A program made the translations under genes and the position numbers. Positions 52,839 to 59,694 of a stretch of DNA of 59,694 nucleotides are shown here, piece by piece. The stretch is taken from NCBI GenBank assembly GCA_964014165.1, contig CAXGZM010000001.1, positions 1 to 59,694 of the forward strand, given 5' to 3'. Numbering within the stretch: position 1 is the stretch's first letter; the number at the start of each line of letters is the position of its first letter. The notes below the pieces were generated by a model, which had not been told where the DNA came from, searched no databases, and saw only the letters and a list, made by a program, of their open reading frames with translations. This stretch comes from an uncultured euryarchaeote. GTDB lineage: Archaea; Thermoplasmatota; Poseidoniia; Poseidoniales; Poseidoniaceae.

Positions 52839-54314
52839 TCAGAAGGAGAAGTCAGAAAATTCTTCTTCATCATCGTAGGTAGCCGCTGGCGCTTCATCGA
52901 CGGTTTCCGGCTCGGGTGCGGCAGATCTGGCTTTTTTCACCGCTTTTCGACGTCGGACCGTTGGTTGCTTCTCGGTCTCTTGGGCGGGTTGCCCCACGTT
53001 GGAGGTGCTCGGTGGTGAACTGCGTCGCTGTTGACCGATGGAGGCAGGGAGCGAGGAGGTCGGTGCCTCTTGGGCGCTCATGCGGTCCATTTCCTGTGCA
53101 GCGTCGGTGGCCACAACGGAGCTCTTTCTTCCACCTGGCCCGGCACCGCCAGGCCCAGAGGTGCCGGTTGATGTGGATGCGAGAACGCTGTCAAGGTCAA
53201 ACCCGCCGAGGGCATCCTCGTCCTTGGTTTTCTTTTCTTCCTTCTTGGGAGGGCTGCGCTGTTTTGCCTCCTCTTTCGCAGCAGCTTTCCGTTCACGGTC
53301 CATGCGTCGTTGTCGTTCTTCTGGTGATTCCATTCCGGCTTTTCTTGCTGCTTTTGCATCGGACTTCACGCTGGCGGCCTTCTTCATCCCCTCGGCGCCG
53401 ATCAGCGTAGCCATGGACTGTTTCGCCGATTTCATCATCATCTGCTTGGATGTGATGAACAGACCGGCCGAGCCTCCAAGGCCGACAACGAGGAAGAACA
53501 AGATGAAACCACCACGGCCGAGGAAGGGGACATCGCCTTGCACCCATTCGTCGTCAGCCTCGCCGCTGGCCGACACCGTTGCATCCTCGAGCGTAATCTT
53601 GCTCACAAACACCAACGCATCTTCACGGTTGCTGGTGCCCACGGTCATCGCACACCCGTTGTCGGCCTTGTGCCACGTGGCTTGGTAGCCGTACTGGTTG
53701 TTGCTTGAATTGCCGGCGGCGACCAGGTAGCCGTGGATGACCACCGGTTGGTGCCACTCGTTCAAGGCCGTCATGCCGGCAAGAACATGCTCGGTCGTTG
53801 GAATGAGCCCGAGAATGAACCAGTCGGTGCTGGATTCCGAATCGACCTCGTCGAGGTCAACGCTTCCAGCGCCGGTTTCAGGTTGCAAAGGCAGCGACCA
53901 CTGCTTCACATCGATACGCGCACCATCGCCGTCCACCACGGCAGCGGCTTGGTCAAACGACATCGATTGGATGGCCACTGCCGTGGTCACACCCAGTTCG
54001 AGGCCCTTTGCGCCCATGACCGTGTCGTGGGCGTCGTAGAACTGGCTGGAAGCCAAGTAGCCGGTGAAGGTGATCGGCTCACCTTGTCCAGCCGCCAGGG
54101 TGCCGCCGTCCGTTCCCGGTGTGCAGCCCACCGGCTGCAAGTCGCTGATGGTCCTTGTCTCGCCAGAGAGCGTTGTTTTTACCGTTGTGCTCTCCATGGA
54201 GAAGTCGACATCAACGGCGCCATCACCGCTCCCCCATCCCGCCGTTGAAGGACCTAGGCAACCGGCGAGGGCCATGCTGGCGATGAGGCAAATGGCGAGC
54301 AGGGCTCTGCGCAT
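52839..54314 (-). CDS. putative lipoprotein with ectodomain, one TM helix and ~210-aa Lys/Glu/Ser-rich disordered cytoplasmic tail
   Basis: ATG 54314 gives MRRALLAICLIASMALAGC (lipobox-like LAGC). TM GGFILFFLVVGLGGSAGLFI. The longer track ORF would run into the tRNA gene. Confidence 0.45.
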   Translation of the reverse strand: MRRALLAICLIASMALAGCLGPSTAGWGSGDGAVDVDFSMESTTVKTTLSGETRTISDLQPVGCTPGTDGGTLAAGQGEPITFTGYLASSQFYDAHDTVMGAKGLELGVTTAVAIQSMSFDQAAAVVDGDGARIDVKQWSLPLQPETGAGSVDLDEVDSESSTDWFILGLIPTTEHVLAGMTALNEWHQPVVIHGYLVAAGNSSNNQYGYQATWHKADNGCAMTVGTSNREDALVFVSKITLEDATVSASGEADDEWVQGDVPFLGRGGFILFFLVVGLGGSAGLFITSKQMMMKSAKQSMATLIGAEGMKKAASVKSDAKAARKAGMESPEERQRRMDRERKAAAKEEAKQRSPPKKEEKKTKDEDALGGFDLDSVLASTSTGTSGPGGAGPGGRKSSVVATDAAQEMDRMSAQEAPTSSLPASIGQQRRSSPPSTSNVGQPAQETEKQPTVRRRKAVKKARSAAPEPETVDEAPAATYDDEEEFSDFSF

Positions 54315-54375
54315 GGCTTGATGAGGGCGGGTGGAGTTTGAGAAGTCTTCCCTGCGGAAAGGCACGTCGTGGTGG

Positions 54376-54461
54376 TGGCGCAGTCGGAGAGATTTGAACT
54401 CCCGAGTCACGGGGACACCGGATTTCAAATCCGGCGCAATACCAGGCTATGCGACGACTGC
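54376..54461 (-). tRNA. tRNA-Ser (anticodon UGA), class II, CCA encoded
   Basis: Folded by hand. Acceptor GCAGTCG/CGACTGC; D-arm GCA-TAGCCTGGTAT-TGC; anticodon stem CCGGA/TCCGG with loop TTTGAAA. A 14-nt variable arm, T-arm GGGAG-TTCAAAT-CTCTC, discriminator G, then CCA. Confidence 0.8.
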
Positions 54462-54502: not shown

Positions 54503-56056
54503 CTAGTCTTGGTCGTTGGACGAGCGCAGGAACCGAGAGGCCACGGTGGCCATCAAGAGCACGCCGACGACCAGCGTTGCGGGCATGAACGGCACCACCT
54601 CGGTTGTGTTCCCTCCGAGTTGCTCCTTTTCCAAGATTTCTCGCACGTCAGCCGTGAAATCCTCAGCGCGCCAGTTGTCGCCGGTCCATGCAACCGTGGG
54701 CTCAAGATCATCGTTGAGGATGTAGGTGATGGTGGAATGACCCACGTTGTAATCTTCCGTGGTTTCGGACACACAACTCAGCTGATCGCCCTCCGCCCAC
54801 GTGTACCCTTCGTCGCACATGCAATGCTTCGAGGCTCCGCTGCCCATTTCCCAACCGTTGCCGTTGCAGACCGTTTCGTTGGCGTTTTCTCCGGCCATCG
54901 GTGAGGGAATGGTGGAGGCGTTCACGTAGGACGGTGCCCATGCGATGTGCTCCGGTTCAAGGAAGTCGTCCATACCGACGTTGGACGATTCCCATGCTGT
55001 TTGGTTGTCATTCCAAGCGTAGAGGTTCCACCACCAACTGTAATCTTCAGGAGCATCGTGGTCGGCAAGGCTGCTCAAGAAGTGACCGTAAGACGAATCC
55101 TCAATGGTGCGGTTCACCGATGCAGCCGTTAGTGCACCTTCGGTCAGGTGGTAGGCGTTGAACGTGGTGAGTCCTTGGTGTGCCGTGGTTCCGTTCGGCC
55201 ACAGAACGCTGACACTGGACGCTTCACTTGCGTTGGGTTGTGGGAGGTCGGAACGGTTGCTCGTTGACGGCATCCATGCCAAATGGGGGTACTCGGTGGC
55301 ATCCAAATCGTCCATGCCGACGTTGGAGGCTTCCCACGTGGCGTTGGTGTCGTTCCACAGATTGAGTTCCCAGTACCACGACCAGTCTGAGGGTGAATCA
55401 ACACCGTTGATGCCGTGAAGCATTCGCCCCCATTCGCTGACCGACGTGTTGAGGGTCCAGTTCGCTTCTTCCGCCATCAAATTGGTCGCCGTCCACCCCG
55501 ACCATGCGAACATGTGTTGGGAAGAATCGTTGGTGGCGTCGACCACGGTCACGGACGCTTCACCGGGCTGGTAGTCGGCAACGTGCATGTCGATGACGTT
55601 CTGTTGGACGACGACGGCGAAGGTGGCCCAAACGTCTTCCAGCTCTTCTGCGCTTCCCGTGAGGTGCGGCCACGAAGCACCCATGCGCTCGCTGTATTCC
55701 TTGAGCACCTCGGGCGTGTCATGATCGGGATCGACACTGATCGAAACAAAGGTGACATCCTCTCGCTCTTCTTCGGTCAACGAGTTCTCAACCTCAATGA
55801 GCGATTGGGTAAGGACCGGGCACACGTCCGGGCAGCGCGTAAAGATGAACGACACCACCACGACACCTTCGGCATCCGTGTTGAACAGGTACTGATCGCC
55901 GTTCTGGTCGGTCAGCGGGCCGATGTCGATGGCTTCTCGGGCGAGTTGCTTGCCGTTGTATGCAGTGGCTGTACCTGCAAGGAGCAAGGCGACCATCAAG
56001 AAGGCAAGGATGTTTTTTTGTTTCATGTTGATACTCAACTCCGTGACGAAGTCCAA
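54503..56056 (-). CDS. SCO1/SenC copper chaperone with ~270-aa nested insertion (two Trp-rich DUF4430-like modules + EGF-like Cys knot) and C-terminal TM anchor
   Basis: N-terminal TM segment. SFIFTRCPDVCP (CxxxC), VSISVDPDHDTP, HLTGS. The canonical EDYNVGHSTITYILNDD His motif appears only at aa 435-450. C-terminal TM ATLVVGVLLMATVA. ATG 56026 is an alternative start. Confidence 0.65.
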   Translation of the reverse strand: MDFVTELSINMKQKNILAFLMVALLLAGTATAYNGKQLAREAIDIGPLTDQNGDQYLFNTDAEGVVVVSFIFTRCPDVCPVLTQSLIEVENSLTEEEREDVTFVSISVDPDHDTPEVLKEYSERMGASWPHLTGSAEELEDVWATFAVVVQQNVIDMHVADYQPGEASVTVVDATNDSSQHMFAWSGWTATNLMAEEANWTLNTSVSEWGRMLHGINGVDSPSDWSWYWELNLWNDTNATWEASNVGMDDLDATEYPHLAWMPSTSNRSDLPQPNASEASSVSVLWPNGTTAHQGLTTFNAYHLTEGALTAASVNRTIEDSSYGHFLSSLADHDAPEDYSWWWNLYAWNDNQTAWESSNVGMDDFLEPEHIAWAPSYVNASTIPSPMAGENANETVCNGNGWEMGSGASKHCMCDEGYTWAEGDQLSCVSETTEDYNVGHSTITYILNDDLEPTVAWTGDNWRAEDFTADVREILEKEQLGGNTTEVVPFMPATLVVGVLLMATVASRFLRSSNDQD

Positions 56057-56108: not shown

Positions 56109-56504
56109 TCAACGTTCCATGGCGAAGTCCCAGTTGGGCGTGCACCACTCTGGAAGTGCCTGAACGGACCCAGGGTTGGAGAGACCGATGCCCCAGAGCA
56201 TCAAGAGCACGAAGAGCACCGGGAACAGGGCTGTTCGGGTGTAGATTCGCGGATCGCCTTTCAAGTGCATGAAATAGGCTGCGATGCCGTAGCCCTTGAT
56301 GACGCCCACGCCAATGAGGATGGCCCACACGGCGTAGAGCGTGATGTGGATGTCCGTACCGGGGATTTTCTCAAAGAAGACGGCCGCCACTTCGAACAGT
56401 GTGAAAAACATCAGCACGACGAAGTTCCAGAAGTAAATGTCAAAGTTGCCGGGCAACTTGTCCACGATCGATTCAAAGATTCCAGTTGTTTCGTGTTCTC
56501 CCAT
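56109..56504 (-). CDS. small 3-4 TM protein, prokaryotic cytochrome oxidase subunit IV-like
   Basis: Sits between subunit III and SCO1. GVGVIKGYGIAAYFMHLKGDP resembles the COX4_pro motif. Confidence 0.5.
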   Translation of the reverse strand: MGEHETTGIFESIVDKLPGNFDIYFWNFVVLMFFTLFEVAAVFFEKIPGTDIHITLYAVWAILIGVGVIKGYGIAAYFMHLKGDPRIYTRTALFPVLFVLLMLWGIGLSNPGSVQALPEWCTPNWDFAMER

Positions 56505-56513
56505 AGTCTCACC

Positions 56514-58103
56514 TCAATACAGATAGAAGGCTGGGAAGATGACCACCCAAGCCAAGTCAACAAAGTGCCAGTACAGGCCGAAGTACTCGATGCCCTGTGC
56601 GTTCTTTTCATCGTAGCCGACGGTGTCGGCCTTGAAGATCAAGTAGAGCATCACCAACAGGCCGACGAACACGTGAACGCCGTGGGCGCCGGTTGAGATG
56701 TAGAAGATGGAGGCTGCCTGACCGGTGTAGTCGATGACGCCTTCTGCTGGCTGGACGCCGATGGAGAAGCCTTCTGCCACCAAGTGGCTCCACTCAACGA
56801 GTTTGAGGACGATGAACATTGAACCGAGCAAGAAGGTGGCGAAGAGGTAGTTGCGGACCGCAGATTTCTGGTCCGGCATGAGTTTGCCCATCAGGCCTTC
56901 TGGTGCCGTCCAATCCTTCTGCTTGGCCGTCTTGAGTGCCAGCACGATGGTGTAGGACGAGATGATGAGAGCAAAGGTGTTGATGGCACCGGGCAAGATG
57001 GTCATGAAATCACCGTGGCCGCCAACGCCGTTGAGCGTACCGCCGTTGGGTCGAAGGAAGTCGGAGGCGGTCAGCACGTTGACCGAGTCGCAGTTTCCTG
57101 CGGAGTACTGCCAGTCCGTGCACCATTCCGTACGCATGCGAAGGTAGGACGAGAAGAACGTGGCGAAGACCATGACTTCGGACATGATGAACACCCAGAT
57201 GCCCGCCTTGCGAATGTGCTGGCCCTCGAAGGGGTCCGAGGTGGCGATTTGCTCGTGGTTGCCGATAAATGGCAAGTCCTCGCGCCACCAGTTGGCGACA
57301 CCTGCGGTGACGACTGTCAAGCCGAGCATGCTCAATCCAAGGTCGCCAATGTTAGCGTCTACGCCGCTCAGCATGTTGCTGAGGGTGTTGGCGAACATCG
57401 GGAAGCCCATGAGGAACAGGAGAATACCGAGGGAGAACACGATGGGCGAACCCGAGCCGTGGTGCTCATGGTCGTCGCCACCATAACCGTGGTCGTCATG
57501 GCCCTGGTCTTCCGGGTAAATTGAATTCATGAAGCCGCCAAGACCGATGAACGCCATGTACGTGACGCACATCAGCAGGATGGTGATGCCGGCCGTCCGC
57601 CACGTCAGGTAGGAAAGATGGGCGTCGACCTTGTCCATTTTCGCGTCGTACTTCTCGTCGGAGAGTTGGAGTTTGATCTGTTTCTTCTCCTCCTTGTCCG
57701 CTCTAAGTGGCTCTTTGGCATCGGCGAGTTGATCTTTGATTTGTTTCTTCTCTTCCTTGTCCGCTCTGAGGGCCTCAAGTTGTTCGCTGGTCGTATTGCT
57801 GTCGTCTGCAGCCTCGGTGTAGTTTGCATTGGCCTGGTTGTAGGTCGCGTTGGCTTGGTTGTAGGTCTCGTTGGCTTGGTTGTAGGTCTCGTTGGCTTGG
57901 GTATAGTTGGCCGTTGCTTCGGTGTACCGCTCCGTGACCCTTTCGTAGTCCAGTTTCTTTTCGTCCCAGTCAGCATGCTTGACGTTGGCAACACCCACGC
58001 TCATGGTGGCGAAGGCCAGGATACCGACGGCGAGGAACACGCCACCGTAAAGCACGGCGCGCATCCAAATGCTGTTTTTTACGTCCGCTTCTCCGCCGCT
58101 CAT
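56514..58103 (-). CDS. ctaE: heme-copper oxidase subunit III with ~225-aa N-terminal extension (TM, repeat-containing coiled segment, TM, His/Asp-rich loop)
   Basis: The C-terminal ~300 aa hold the subunit III motifs: WVFIMSEVMVFATFF, STGAHGVHVFVG, YWHFVDLAWVVIF. ATGA overlap with the subunit I stop. Confidence 0.8.
   Translation of the reverse strand: MSGGEADVKNSIWMRAVLYGGVFLAVGILAFATMSVGVANVKHADWDEKKLDYERVTERYTEATANYTQANETYNQANETYNQANATYNQANANYTEAADDSNTTSEQLEALRADKEEKKQIKDQLADAKEPLRADKEEKKQIKLQLSDEKYDAKMDKVDAHLSYLTWRTAGITILLMCVTYMAFIGLGGFMNSIYPEDQGHDDHGYGGDDHEHHGSGSPIVFSLGILLFLMGFPMFANTLSNMLSGVDANIGDLGLSMLGLTVVTAGVANWWREDLPFIGNHEQIATSDPFEGQHIRKAGIWVFIMSEVMVFATFFSSYLRMRTEWCTDWQYSAGNCDSVNVLTASDFLRPNGGTLNGVGGHGDFMTILPGAINTFALIISSYTIVLALKTAKQKDWTAPEGLMGKLMPDQKSAVRNYLFATFLLGSMFIVLKLVEWSHLVAEGFSIGVQPAEGVIDYTGQAASIFYISTGAHGVHVFVGLLVMLYLIFKADTVGYDEKNAQGIEYFGLYWHFVDLAWVVIFPAFYLY
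57663..57788 (-). repeat. 63-bp direct repeat, 2 copies, coding LRADKEEKKQIK.QL
   Basis: The copies start at 57663 and 57726. Roughly the first 48 nt are near-identical. Confidence 0.7.
57819..57923 (-). repeat. 21-bp tandem repeat, about 5 copies (3 near-perfect), coding heptads YNQANET
   Basis: gtaggtctcgttggcttggtt at 57861 and 57882. 57840 differs at 1 position. The flanking copies are degenerate. Confidence 0.8.
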
Positions 58104-59694
58104 TCTTCCGCCCCCTTGGCTTCAGCAGACCACAGTTTCTCCTTGAGGGACGGTCCGTCGTGCTTGTGATGCCCGAACTCTTCGTTCTTGTCGTGCTGCG
58201 TTGGAATGTCGTGGAACGACGGGGTGGGTGGAGGTGAGGTGGTGGACCACTCGAGCGACCATCCGCCCCACGGGTCCTTGCCAACGGGCTCGCCTCGACG
58301 GGCCGAGTAGAGGATGTTCCACACCAGCAGGAGCTGGCTGATACCGAAGATGAAGGCAAAGGTGGACACCGCCATGTTGTACTCGGCGAAGCCGGACTCG
58401 ATGGTGTAGGTGTGGGTTCGTCGAGGCATCCCCATGATACCAAGGGCGTGCATGGGCCAGAAGGCTGCGTTGTAGGAGGCAAAGCCGATGAGGAAGTGCC
58501 AGAGGCCGAGGGTTTCGTTCAACTTTCGGCCGGTGGCCTTGGGGTACCAGTAGTAAACGGCGGAGAACAGTGCAAAGACGGTACCGCCGATGAACACGTA
58601 GTGGAAGTGCGCCACCACGAAGTACGAATCGTGGAAGTGGATGTCAAGACCGGCCACGGGGAAGAACATGCCCGAGATACCGCCGAGGGTAAAGGTGACC
58701 AGGAAGCCCAGCGACCACAAAGTGTGGGTCTTCATGACGAGCGAACCGCCCCAAAGGGTGGCCAGCCAGTTGAAGATCTTCGCACCGGTCGGGATGGCGA
58801 CGAGCATGGTCATGATCATGAACAGCGCACGCCAGAACGGATCCATGCCGGAAGTCAGCATGTGGTGGCCCCAGACGATGAAGCCGACGATGCCGATACC
58901 GGCCATGGCGAACACCATGGACTTGTAGCCGAAGATGGAACGTCGAGCCGAGGTGGCAAGCACTTCGGAAACGATACCGAAGGCTGGAACGATGACCACG
59001 TAGACTTCGGGGTGGCCGAAGAACCAGAACAGGTGTTGGAAGAGCAACGGGTCGCCGCCAGCCACGAAGAACTGCGTTCCAATGGTGTGGTCGAACAGCA
59101 GGAAGGCTACGCCGATGATGAGGGCAGGCAGGGACATGAAGAGCATGAACACGCTGATGAAGACCGACCAAGTGAACAAGGGCATCTTCATCCAGGTGAC
59201 ACCGGGCGCACGCATCGTGAACACGGTGGTGATGAAGTTCACGCCACCCAAGGTCGAGGACGCACCGAGCATGAGCATGCCCGAGATGAACGCCGTTGTA
59301 CCGGGGTTGGAACCGTAATCGGCGAGGGTGGAGCCCAGGTTGGCCTCGTTGAGCGAGGAGTAGGGCGGGTACATGACCCACGTGATGTCAGCGCCTTCAC
59401 CCGAAAAGACGCCGGTGAAGATGAGCGGTGCGGAGAAGACGAGCAGCCACAGGCCCATGGCGTTGATGCGGGGGAAGGCCAGGTCTTTGGCACCGATTTG
59501 AAGCGGGAGGACGTAGTTCATGAAGCCAGCAATCATCGGCATGGCAGCCAAGAAAATCATCGTCGTGCCGTGGAGCGTGAAGAAGGAGTTGTACTCGTCG
59601 TAGGTCAAGAAGTCGTTCTCCGGCAGGGCCAGTTGAATGCGGAACAGCAAGGCCAACAATCCACCAACGAGGAAGAAGAAGAACCCGAACAGGA
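58100..59694 (-). CDS. ctaD: heme-copper oxidase subunit I (5' end beyond the window)
   Basis: HGTTMIFL, WFFGHPEVY, HHMLT, VAHFHYV. The frame stays open to the window edge (LFGFFFFLVGGLLALLFRIQLA), so the track Met at 59659 is not the start. Confidence 0.9.
   Translation of the reverse strand, partial: LFGFFFFLVGGLLALLFRIQLALPENDFLTYDEYNSFFTLHGTTMIFLAAMPMIAGFMNYVLPLQIGAKDLAFPRINAMGLWLLVFSAPLIFTGVFSGEGADITWVMYPPYSSLNEANLGSTLADYGSNPGTTAFISGMLMLGASSTLGGVNFITTVFTMRAPGVTWMKMPLFTWSVFISVFMLFMSLPALIIGVAFLLFDHTIGTQFFVAGGDPLLFQHLFWFFGHPEVYVVIVPAFGIVSEVLATSARRSIFGYKSMVFAMAGIGIVGFIVWGHHMLTSGMDPFWRALFMIMTMLVAIPTGAKIFNWLATLWGGSLVMKTHTLWSLGFLVTFTLGGISGMFFPVAGLDIHFHDSYFVVAHFHYVFIGGTVFALFSAVYYWYPKATGRKLNETLGLWHFLIGFASYNAAFWPMHALGIMGMPRRTHTYTIESGFAEYNMAVSTFAFIFGISQLLLVWNILYSARRGEPVGKDPWGGWSLEWSTTSPPPTPSFHDIPTQHDKNEEFGHHKHDGPSLKEKLWSAEAKGAEE

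Follow-up and report, generated by a model that had tools for sequence, protein, structure and literature searches.

An SCO Protein from the Cytochrome Oxidase Operon of a Marine Group II Archaeon with a Nested Insertion ahead of Its Copper-Ligand Histidine

Results and Discussion

The Locus and the Encoded Protein

The protein described here is encoded on the minus strand, at positions 54503 to 56056, of a 59,694-nucleotide stretch of DNA from an uncultured euryarchaeote (GenBank assembly GCA_964014165.1, contig CAXGZM010000001.1, positions 1 to 59,694; the whole stretch is referred to as the window). The open reading frame is that of the cytochrome oxidase (cox) operon SCO1/SenC protein of a Poseidoniaceae (Marine Group II, MGII) archaeon. 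It is a variant of the known SCO family, not a new kind of system. An original prediction, made from the letters of the DNA, had proposed that the SCO fold is split by a nested insertion of ∼270 residues with the copper-ligand His on its far side, and the analysis bears this out, as evidenced by a gain in Pfam score after excision of the insert, collinear pieces shared with a paralog, Foldseek matches, and the invariance of H440. The parts of the protein are as follows.

54503 to 56056, minus strand: whole open reading frame of the split SCO protein, 517 residues if counted from TTG
55958 to 56026, minus strand: N-terminal signal or anchor helix (residues 11–33), ending in a conserved A-x-A / Y-x-G in the alignment; helix 11–30 in the model
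55595 to 55939, minus strand: N-terminal two thirds of the SCO thioredoxin fold (residues 40–154), Pfam SCO1-SenC profile positions 6–111
55820 to 55834, minus strand: CxxxC copper/redox motif, C75-P-D-V-C79, both Cys invariant
55556 to 55594, minus strand: residual loop (residues 155–167) with the VID-x-H158 motif, its His at least 90% conserved, also in the MGIIb variants
55229 to 55555, minus strand: module 1 (residues 168–276), a Trp-rich DUF4430 / transcobalamin-beta-like domain
54893 to 55216, minus strand: module 2 (residues 281–388), homologous to module 1
54767 to 54874, minus strand: four-Cys "HCMC" knot (residues 395–430), with C397, G401, M404, G405, H411, C412, M413, C414, and C428 invariant
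54623 to 54757, minus strand: C-terminal third of the SCO fold (residues 434–478), comprising the His strand DYNVGH440STITYIL, a second strand, and a helix; Pfam profile positions 112–131 after insert removal
54506 to 54598, minus strand: C-terminal P-F-M, hydrophobic helix, and basic tail (residues 487–517), a degenerate PGF-CTERM-like signal or anchor

Homologues begin at M11, and a GGAG element lies 13 nt 5′ of the M11 ATG (56026); on these grounds the true protein is probably one of 507 residues with its ATG start at 56026. Residue numbers nevertheless follow the 517-residue TTG count throughout. The motifs quoted in the original prediction, namely FIFTRCPDVCP (C75 and C79), SISVDPDHDTP, HLTGS, IDMH158VADY, and both Trp-rich modules, are all present. 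The copper-ligand strand is likewise found, as EDYNVGH440STITYILNDDLEPTV, but at residues 434–455 rather than 435–456, one residue off from where it had been placed.

A Thioredoxin Fold in Two Pieces

The Pfam SCO1-SenC profile (PF02630) matches residues 48–154 with 89.8 bits (cut-off 22.8), covering profile positions 6–111 of 134. When residues 155–431 are deleted in silico, the match spans the junction and covers profile positions 6–131 of 134 with 102.3 bits, a gain of 12.5. The first 219 residues taken uninterrupted, which include H158 and the start of module 1, reach only profile positions 6–112, and phmmer matches to solved SCO proteins likewise end near residue 150. The SCO fold breaks off after residue 154 and picks up again at residues 432–434.

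The same genome (contig C135) encodes a 222-residue SCO paralog, which BLASTP aligns with the long SCO in two collinear pieces: residues 14–148 of the long protein with 3–154 of the paralog, and 434–474 with 179–219. In the second piece, DDYTVNHETGTILVD of the long SCO pairs with EDYNVGHSTITYILND of the paralog, and the His strand of the long SCO aligns with DDYTVNHETGTILV. The two pieces are separated by 25 residues in the paralog versus 286 in the long SCO. Across 50 homologues (42–94% identity), C75, C79, and H440 are all invariant.

An AlphaFold model of the full-length protein has a predicted local distance difference test (pLDDT) score of 84.6, and in it residues 443–447 and 453–458 form strands and residues 464–477 a helix, at pLDDT 85–91. 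A thioredoxin fold requires just such a terminal strand-strand-helix. Foldseek ranks solved SCO structures at the top for the full model, with ∼105–120 residues superposing at ∼2 Å and a target-normalised TM-score of at most 0.65; where the alignments extend into residues 155–200, the root-mean-square deviation (rmsd) is 10–12 Å. It is therefore very probable that the thioredoxin fold is built from two separated pieces, residues 40–154 and 434–478, with C75, C79, and H440 as the ligand set, and that the flexible loop just ahead of this His has an insert of ∼275 residues nested in it, which forms a lobe of its own made of two DUF4430 domains and a four-Cys knot.

Comparison with canonical SCO1/SenC/ScoI proteins (Bacillus subtilis Sco/YpmQ, 1xzo and 1on4; human SCO1, 1wp0 and 2ggt; Thermus Sco1, 2k6v; Bradyrhizobium ScoI, 4wbj) shows what is retained: the thioredoxin-like fold with CxxxC starting helix 1, the His ligand on a D/G-H-S/T strand that is followed by a strand and a helix, the linkage to cytochrome oxidase, and the extracytoplasmic, membrane-tethered domain. 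The differences lie in the loop before the His, which is ∼275 residues longer and holds three extra domains, and in the anchor, which is N-terminal only in the canonical proteins and probably C-terminal (PGF-CTERM-like) in the long SCO. In B. subtilis Sco and human SCO1 the distance from Cys to His is ∼86–87 residues. The original prediction had put the corresponding distance at ∼360; we count 361 residues from C79 to H440, and the insert is what takes the protein outside the usual SCO spacing of ∼85–90 residues after CxxxC.

A weaker alternative offered alongside the split was that H158 is the copper ligand, in which case the SCO fold would be complete in residues 40–200 and the later part, residues 434–478 included, would be an unrelated C-terminal extension. 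H158 is at least 90% conserved, and in relatives with a single module (below) the Pfam SCO match takes in the opening strand of the module (ADHSLVIMLPDN) and ends only at profile positions 126–130, so that these proteins can be mistaken for having a complete fold. That strand, HxVxVLYPD, belongs to the module, however, because the same strand opens the module in proteins of the ZnuA type. The first 219 residues on their own stop at profile position 112, whereas residues 434–474 align with the C-terminal His strand and helix of the 222-residue paralog and complete the Pfam profile. Furthermore, the superposition deteriorates to 10–12 Å as soon as residues 155–200 are included, and the fold needs its final strand-strand-helix. 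No complete SCO fold is found in residues 40–200. We consider the alternative very improbable. Because of its conservation H158 may still have a role of its own, as an additional ligand, a transit residue, or otherwise.

The Inserted Modules Are Divergent DUF4430 Domains

The two Trp-rich modules had been recognised as homologous, and comparison of their profiles confirms it: hhalign aligns modules 1 and 2 (∼108 residues each) with a probability of 99.9%, an E value of 2.4e-31, and 36% identity. The original prediction had also noted a resemblance to DUF4430/transcobalamin-like domains, and this resemblance holds. The insert modelled alone (44 sequences) has a pLDDT of 89.6 and a predicted TM-score of 0.84, and when this model is compared with the PDB by Foldseek, each of the top 19 matches is either the DUF4430 protein 3u7z or a beta domain from transcobalamin, intrinsic factor, or haptocorrin, with probabilities of 0.75–1.00. 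Pfam DUF4430 (PF14478) is matched in 11 of the 50 orthologues at E ≤ 0.1, and module 1 of orthologue P0086 scores 24.3 bits against a gathering score of 23.8. A single-module profile run against 1.84 billion representative proteins returns only 183 at E ≤ 0.001; among them are P0129, P0201, and P0215, which contain 4–10 canonical DUF4430 copies at 101–469 bits. Searched by sequence against solved structures in the PDB, the module profile finds no relative, and an NCBIfam scan of the query protein gives no match. Considering the Foldseek ranking, the Pfam match in P0086, and the profile links to canonical arrays, the modules are a divergent, Trp-rich, sequon-rich subfamily of DUF4430. They share with the family (transcobalamin/intrinsic factor/haptocorrin beta domain, 3u7z) the small beta-rich fold and the G-W-x-Y-x-x-N / G-x-D / x-W signature; they differ in being used as inserts nested in other domains, without an alpha-toroid partner.

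The family relationship raises the question of a ligand. On one reading, the DUF4430 modules would take up a corrinoid or some other flat organic molecule, such as the organically complexed copper of sea water, and would feed or regulate the chaperone. Fold and family both lead to the beta domains of cobalamin carriers, the modules have a Trp content of 6–8% each with many aromatic residues of the exposed type, and the module recurs in solute-binding proteins. However, the carriers hold cobalamin mainly between their alpha and beta domains, and the alpha (toroid) domain is absent here; the profile search of the PDB brought up no sequence relative of the module; and most of the conserved Trp residues align to core positions of the DUF4430 signature. 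We regard ligand binding of this kind as quite unlikely.

A Four-Cys Knot Is the Most Conserved Segment

Between module 2 and the His strand lies a Cys-rich piece, CNGNGWEMGSGASKHCMCDEGYTWAEGDQLSC (residues 397–428), with the pattern C397-x3-G-W-x-M-G-x6-H-C-M-C-D-x-G-Y-x9-C428, which forms two hairpins in the model. The Cys, Gly, Met, Gly, His, Cys, Met, Cys, and Cys positions listed above are invariant across knot-bearing proteins of MGIIa, MGIIb, and a third family. The original prediction had called this piece an EGF-like (epidermal growth factor-like) Cys knot. The Cys-rich piece is there; membership in the EGF family does not hold up. The knot resembles EGF-like domains in its C-x-C-x2-G-Y...C pattern and in the two beta hairpins of the model, and differs in having four Cys instead of six and in the weakness of its Foldseek EGF matches. 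No EGF model was reached, the best EGF-type match in Pfam having an E value of 0.02 at ∼15 bits, far under the 65 bits of EGF_TEN (the one cut-off printed). A search of the knot profile against solved structures finds none related, the best match being a Sushi domain with an E value of 0.25. As judged from these comparisons, the label "EGF-like" describes a resemblance of pattern and not family membership. In the modelled strand 411–414, H411 and M413 would point to one face and C412 and C414 to the other.

Mean pairwise identity is 0.57 in the N-terminal SCO part, 0.47–0.48 in the modules, 0.67 in the knot, and 0.56 in the C-terminal SCO part, which makes the knot the protein's most conserved segment. 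Rough Nei-Gojobori ratios of nonsynonymous to synonymous substitution (dN/dS) against four relatives, in which several dS values are saturated, are 0.06–0.20 for the modules and 0.01–0.08 for the knot.

Glycosylation and Anchoring

At least 9 N-x-S/T sequons had been noted; we count 13, and 12 of these fall within the insertion. Shuffled ectodomains contain 5.4 ± 2.1 sequons and reach 13 in 4 of 2000 cases, and five of the sequons are retained in 37–47 of 50 homologues. On the basis of this excess and retention, the insert is probably heavily N-glycosylated.

At the N-terminus, the alignment suggests a signal-peptidase site after the conserved A-x-A. At the C-terminus, the original prediction had placed a second transmembrane helix as an anchor. 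The hydrophobic helix is indeed present, but a plain anchor is not the better description of it, as a degenerate PGF-CTERM archaeosortase signal appears more likely from the sequence. The query ends in P-F-M, the helix, and RFLRSS, without a match to the TIGR04126 model; among the 50 orthologues, PGF-CTERM (TIGR04126) is recognised in 4, at best with an E value of 1.3e-5, and an explicit PGF motif occurs in P0158, P0160, and P0169. The genome also encodes archaeosortase A (ArtA), found by TIGR04125 with 85.4 bits against a cut-off of 75; a probe with PF09721 gave no match but also missed the control, Haloferax. Since orthologues carry PGF-CTERM and the genome encodes the archaeosortase, C-terminal anchoring after processing is plausible. 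The entire ectodomain would be extracellular, probably freed of the N-terminal signal peptide and held by a PGF-CTERM-type anchor.

The Oxidase Operon

Three oxidase genes precede the SCO gene on the same strand and run to the end of the contig.

56109 to 56504, minus strand: cytochrome oxidase subunit IV gene, directly upstream of SCO in the same operon
56514 to 58103, minus strand: cytochrome oxidase subunit III gene, with a long N-terminal extension
58100 to 59694, minus strand: cytochrome oxidase subunit I gene, truncated at the contig end

In a relative with longer flanks (L011), the gene order is coxII-coxI-coxIII-coxIV-SCO followed by a gene for a 524-residue protein, and CoxII of this relative has the CuA motif CAEYCGNQHSMM. 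Poseidoniales coxA has been assigned to the A1 type, of bacterial origin (PMC9287336). The oxidase subunits are enlarged. CoxIII of the window is 529 residues long owing to its extension; in the relative, CoxI (L011:1901-4219) has 773 residues, ∼230 of them extra at the N-terminus, and CoxII (L011:918-1898) has 327, with ∼100 extra residues within the cupredoxin domain.

Distribution and Variants

Homologues go by the name "SCO family protein [Candidatus Poseidonia sp.]", and the full architecture is common to more than 300 protein clusters of ∼500–550 residues. Relatives are encoded in 267 species-level genomes, nearly all of them labelled Poseidoniales, Marine Group II, or Euryarchaeota, including the first MG-II genome, CM001443. 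That the insert is an artefact, whether by misassembly, gene fusion through a missed stop, an intein, or a mobile insert, has a negligible probability: the same continuous frame recurs in all of these genomes and clusters, and the insert is under purifying selection, contains no stops, and has a DUF4430 fold instead of a Hint fold. One archaeal SCO, at 71% identity, sits on a contig labelled "Verrucomicrobiales bacterium" (NZEQ01000060.1, L010), which is probably mis-binned.

To survey variants, the insert profile was searched against 300 genomes of the class. The window's own family (f1; named relatives are Poseidoniaceae) has the full two-module form in 135 of 140 genomes. The order's second family (f2), which is probably MGIIb, gives weaker matches in 96 of 114 genomes, in frames of ∼365–400 residues, and a third family gives a match in one genus (4 of 9 genomes). 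The shorter proteins of the second and third families have the split SCO architecture too, but with only one module. The knot is kept in some of these single-module variants (L089, L091, L101-L104, P0154, P0163, and P0233). In those that lack it (L090, P0155, P0160, P0162, and P0164), linkers rich in His, Met, and Asp adjoin the module at one end or at both, immediately ahead of the His strand.

Four genomes of the second family, probably MGIIb (G048, G133, G018, and G012; loci L101-L104), have tandem SCO genes, one for a protein of 242–250 residues and one for a protein of 364–375. The smaller has an Asp-rich, Cys-containing insert of thrombospondin-type-3 / MopE-like character, and the larger a degenerate DUF4430 module together with the HCMC knot; both inserts occupy the same loop before the His strand. 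Other MGII SCO paralogs (L101-L104 and the 222-residue protein, L002) share the core, the insertion point, and the genomes of the long form, and sometimes stand in tandem with it, but are 220–250 residues long, have short inserts that are either Asp-rich and thrombospondin-type-3/MopE-like or Asn-rich, and lie outside the cox operon. The 222-residue protein (L002:399-1067, G000 contig C135) has a lipobox-like start and an Asn-rich loop, and its gene is flanked by a propeller-like gene fragment and by a gene for a 210-residue, His-containing secreted protein.

The Module in Other Proteins

Within this genome the Trp-rich module is found in SCO only. Elsewhere in the genus of the window, it is nested in the inter-lobe loop of Poseidonia metal-binding proteins of the ZnuA type (L093:1074-3752, plus strand; a minus-strand frame in L092; P0128, P0134, P0161, and P0166). 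This loop is several hundred residues long and contains His-rich runs, EF-hand pairs, a small VCYD...C...GxxW motif, and one or two modules; in L093, a metal-ABC ATPase gene follows. The likeness to the SCO insert is that of a loop adjacent to a metal site with metal-binding low-complexity sequence, since the His-rich loop of ZnuA-type (cluster A-I) proteins flanks, in Poseidoniales, the same module with His-rich runs. The scaffold and the metal are different, and EF-hands are also present. The module is further nested in a solute-binding protein of the SBP_bac_6/8 type (P0165, 486 residues), and it is also present in a NosD / beta-helix protein that bears three metal motifs of the MopE type (P0156, 1196 residues) and in multi-DUF4430 surface proteins.

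Two side observations concern this genome. Its own ZnuA gene is split across contig ends (C104:7-474 and C143:207-455; L099 and L100), between profile positions 85 and 118, and because this is where relatives carry their repetitive insert, the assembly probably broke on it. A 555-residue protein encoded at L098:1405-3072 (minus strand, G000 contig C6) ends in a canonical DUF4430 domain (24.2 bits, cut-off 23.8), which is preceded by a signal peptide, a propeller-like ectodomain, and a transmembrane segment.

Proposed Role of the Lobe

Our best explanation of the whole, which we hold to be reasonably probable, is an SCO protein that serves the CuA site of an A1-type haem-copper oxidase, is split by a nested three-domain lobe, and uses the insert in copper capture or hand-over. 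The SCO core would act on CoxII as usual, by inserting copper or by reducing the CuA cysteines. An element beside H440, either Met404, His411, and Met413 of the knot or a His/Met/Asp-rich linker, could be the first landing or hand-over site for copper, and the DUF4430 domains could form a rigid glycosylated scaffold that presents or shields the copper site or docks to the similarly decorated oxidase. All of this would take place in a lineage without a recognisable PCuAC and without an enclosed periplasm.

PCuAC (PF04314) is a Cu(I) chaperone that loads CuA jointly with Sco in Thermus and Bradyrhizobium. With the Pfam profile it was not detected in this genome or in any of 70 Poseidoniales genomes, of which 67 are at least 90% complete. 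The parallel that we propose between PCuAC and the knot is one of function only, in that each would work beside Sco, outside the cell, with His/Met ligands that resist oxidation; there is no relation of sequence or fold, and the H(M)x10Mx21HxM motif of PCuAC is absent from the knot.

More specifically, the role of the insert may be to get copper to the site by way of a landing or hand-over element next to H440, which is quite possible but falls somewhat short of probable. A copper role is favored because H440 is in every case directly preceded by the knot, with its invariant Met-His-Met, or by a His/Met/Asp-rich linker, because PCuAC is missing from the genomes searched, and because the module recurs near metal sites elsewhere. 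The most far-reaching version is a speculative and rather unlikely one: that the CuA chaperone of MGII incorporates a device for acquiring copper, in which Cu(I) would be trapped at the open cell surface by a disulfide-stapled His/Met site (the M404-H411-x-M413 face of the knot, or the His/Met-rich linkers) and delivered to the adjacent Cys2His site, replacing the missing PCuAC, and in which the Trp-rich DUF4430 module would have been recruited repeatedly to metal-site loops (SCO, ZnuA, and NosD/MopE-like proteins) for scavenging trace metals in the surface ocean.

The main alternative is that the lobe has no metal or ligand chemistry and acts passively, as a rigid spacer or shield bearing N-glycans or as the surface on which the decorated oxidase or the envelope docks, with the SCO core working as in bacteria and Poseidoniales adding such lobes to many of their surface proteins. 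The concentration of sequons in the insert, several of them conserved, fits this picture, as do the invariant module residues, which are mostly Trp and Gly as is typical of a DUF4430 core. The module is nested in proteins as unrelated as the ZnuA type, the SBP_bac_6/8 type, and multi-DUF4430 proteins with CarboxypepD_reg; CoxI, CoxII, and CoxIII of the lineage likewise have large extensions; and bacterial DUF4430 arrays co-occur with S-layer homology (SLH) cell-wall anchors. However, the knot is the most constrained part of the protein, and its invariant positions include Met, His, and Met beyond the Cys and Gly residues. In addition, the proteins without a knot carry His/Met/Asp-rich linkers beside the His ligand, which a pure spacer would not need, and the insertion site is the one loop that bears the copper ligand. 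We treat a passive lobe as a possibility to be taken seriously, if on balance a doubtful one.

Several points weigh against the copper-handling explanation and the structural picture beneath it. The four Cys of the knot may simply form two structural disulfides, with the Met and His as packing residues. In the modules, H325 (module 2) is the sole invariant potential metal ligand, most invariant positions being Trp or Gly, and the occurrence of the module in a solute-binding protein not of the ZnuA type and in multi-DUF4430 surface proteins fits general surface decoration as well as a metal role. The absence of PCuAC is the absence of a Pfam match, and an analogue may exist. The conserved H158 could itself be a ligand or a transit site. 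As for the structure, the packing of residues 437–478 on residues 40–154 and the position of the knot relative to CxxxC are inferred; the Foldseek E values for the DUF4430 fold are modest (5e-3 to 0.2), with TM-scores of ∼0.5 to isolated beta domains, and the query's own modules stay below the Pfam DUF4430 cut-off, with no match.

In the surface ocean, few heterotrophs are more abundant than Marine Group II archaea; copper there is often scarce, and organic ligands complex nearly all of it. The sole oxidase-linked copper chaperone of MGII has a large, strongly conserved lobe at its copper-ligand loop, and the usual partner, PCuAC, is not detectable. In our literature search we found no paper that describes the split SCO architecture or links Marine Group II/Poseidoniales to an unusual SCO, and none on the function of DUF4430 in prokaryotes. 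If the lobe does take part in copper capture or delivery, it would represent a new way of loading CuA without a periplasm and a first functional context for the prokaryotic DUF4430 family. If it is only a glycosylated scaffold, the SCO fold still tolerates a three-domain insertion beside its active site, and a single lineage has placed the same small domain inside several unrelated binding proteins. The split SCO and the nested modules are useful for annotation because the genes are now named only "SCO family protein" or "hypothetical".

Further Genes at the Locus

Just downstream of the SCO gene lies a gene for a protein of 524–529 residues (window positions 52839-54428, minus strand), which keeps this position in the relative (L011:7592-9163). 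Pfam gives no match for the protein, which starts with a lipobox-like sequence and also comprises an ectodomain, a single transmembrane helix, and a long tail rich in Lys and Glu. A tRNA-Ser gene (anticodon TGA; window positions 54376-54461, minus strand) lies 42 nt 3′ of the SCO stop codon, and a translated tRNA-like string in L091 suggests the same arrangement of SCO and tRNA there.

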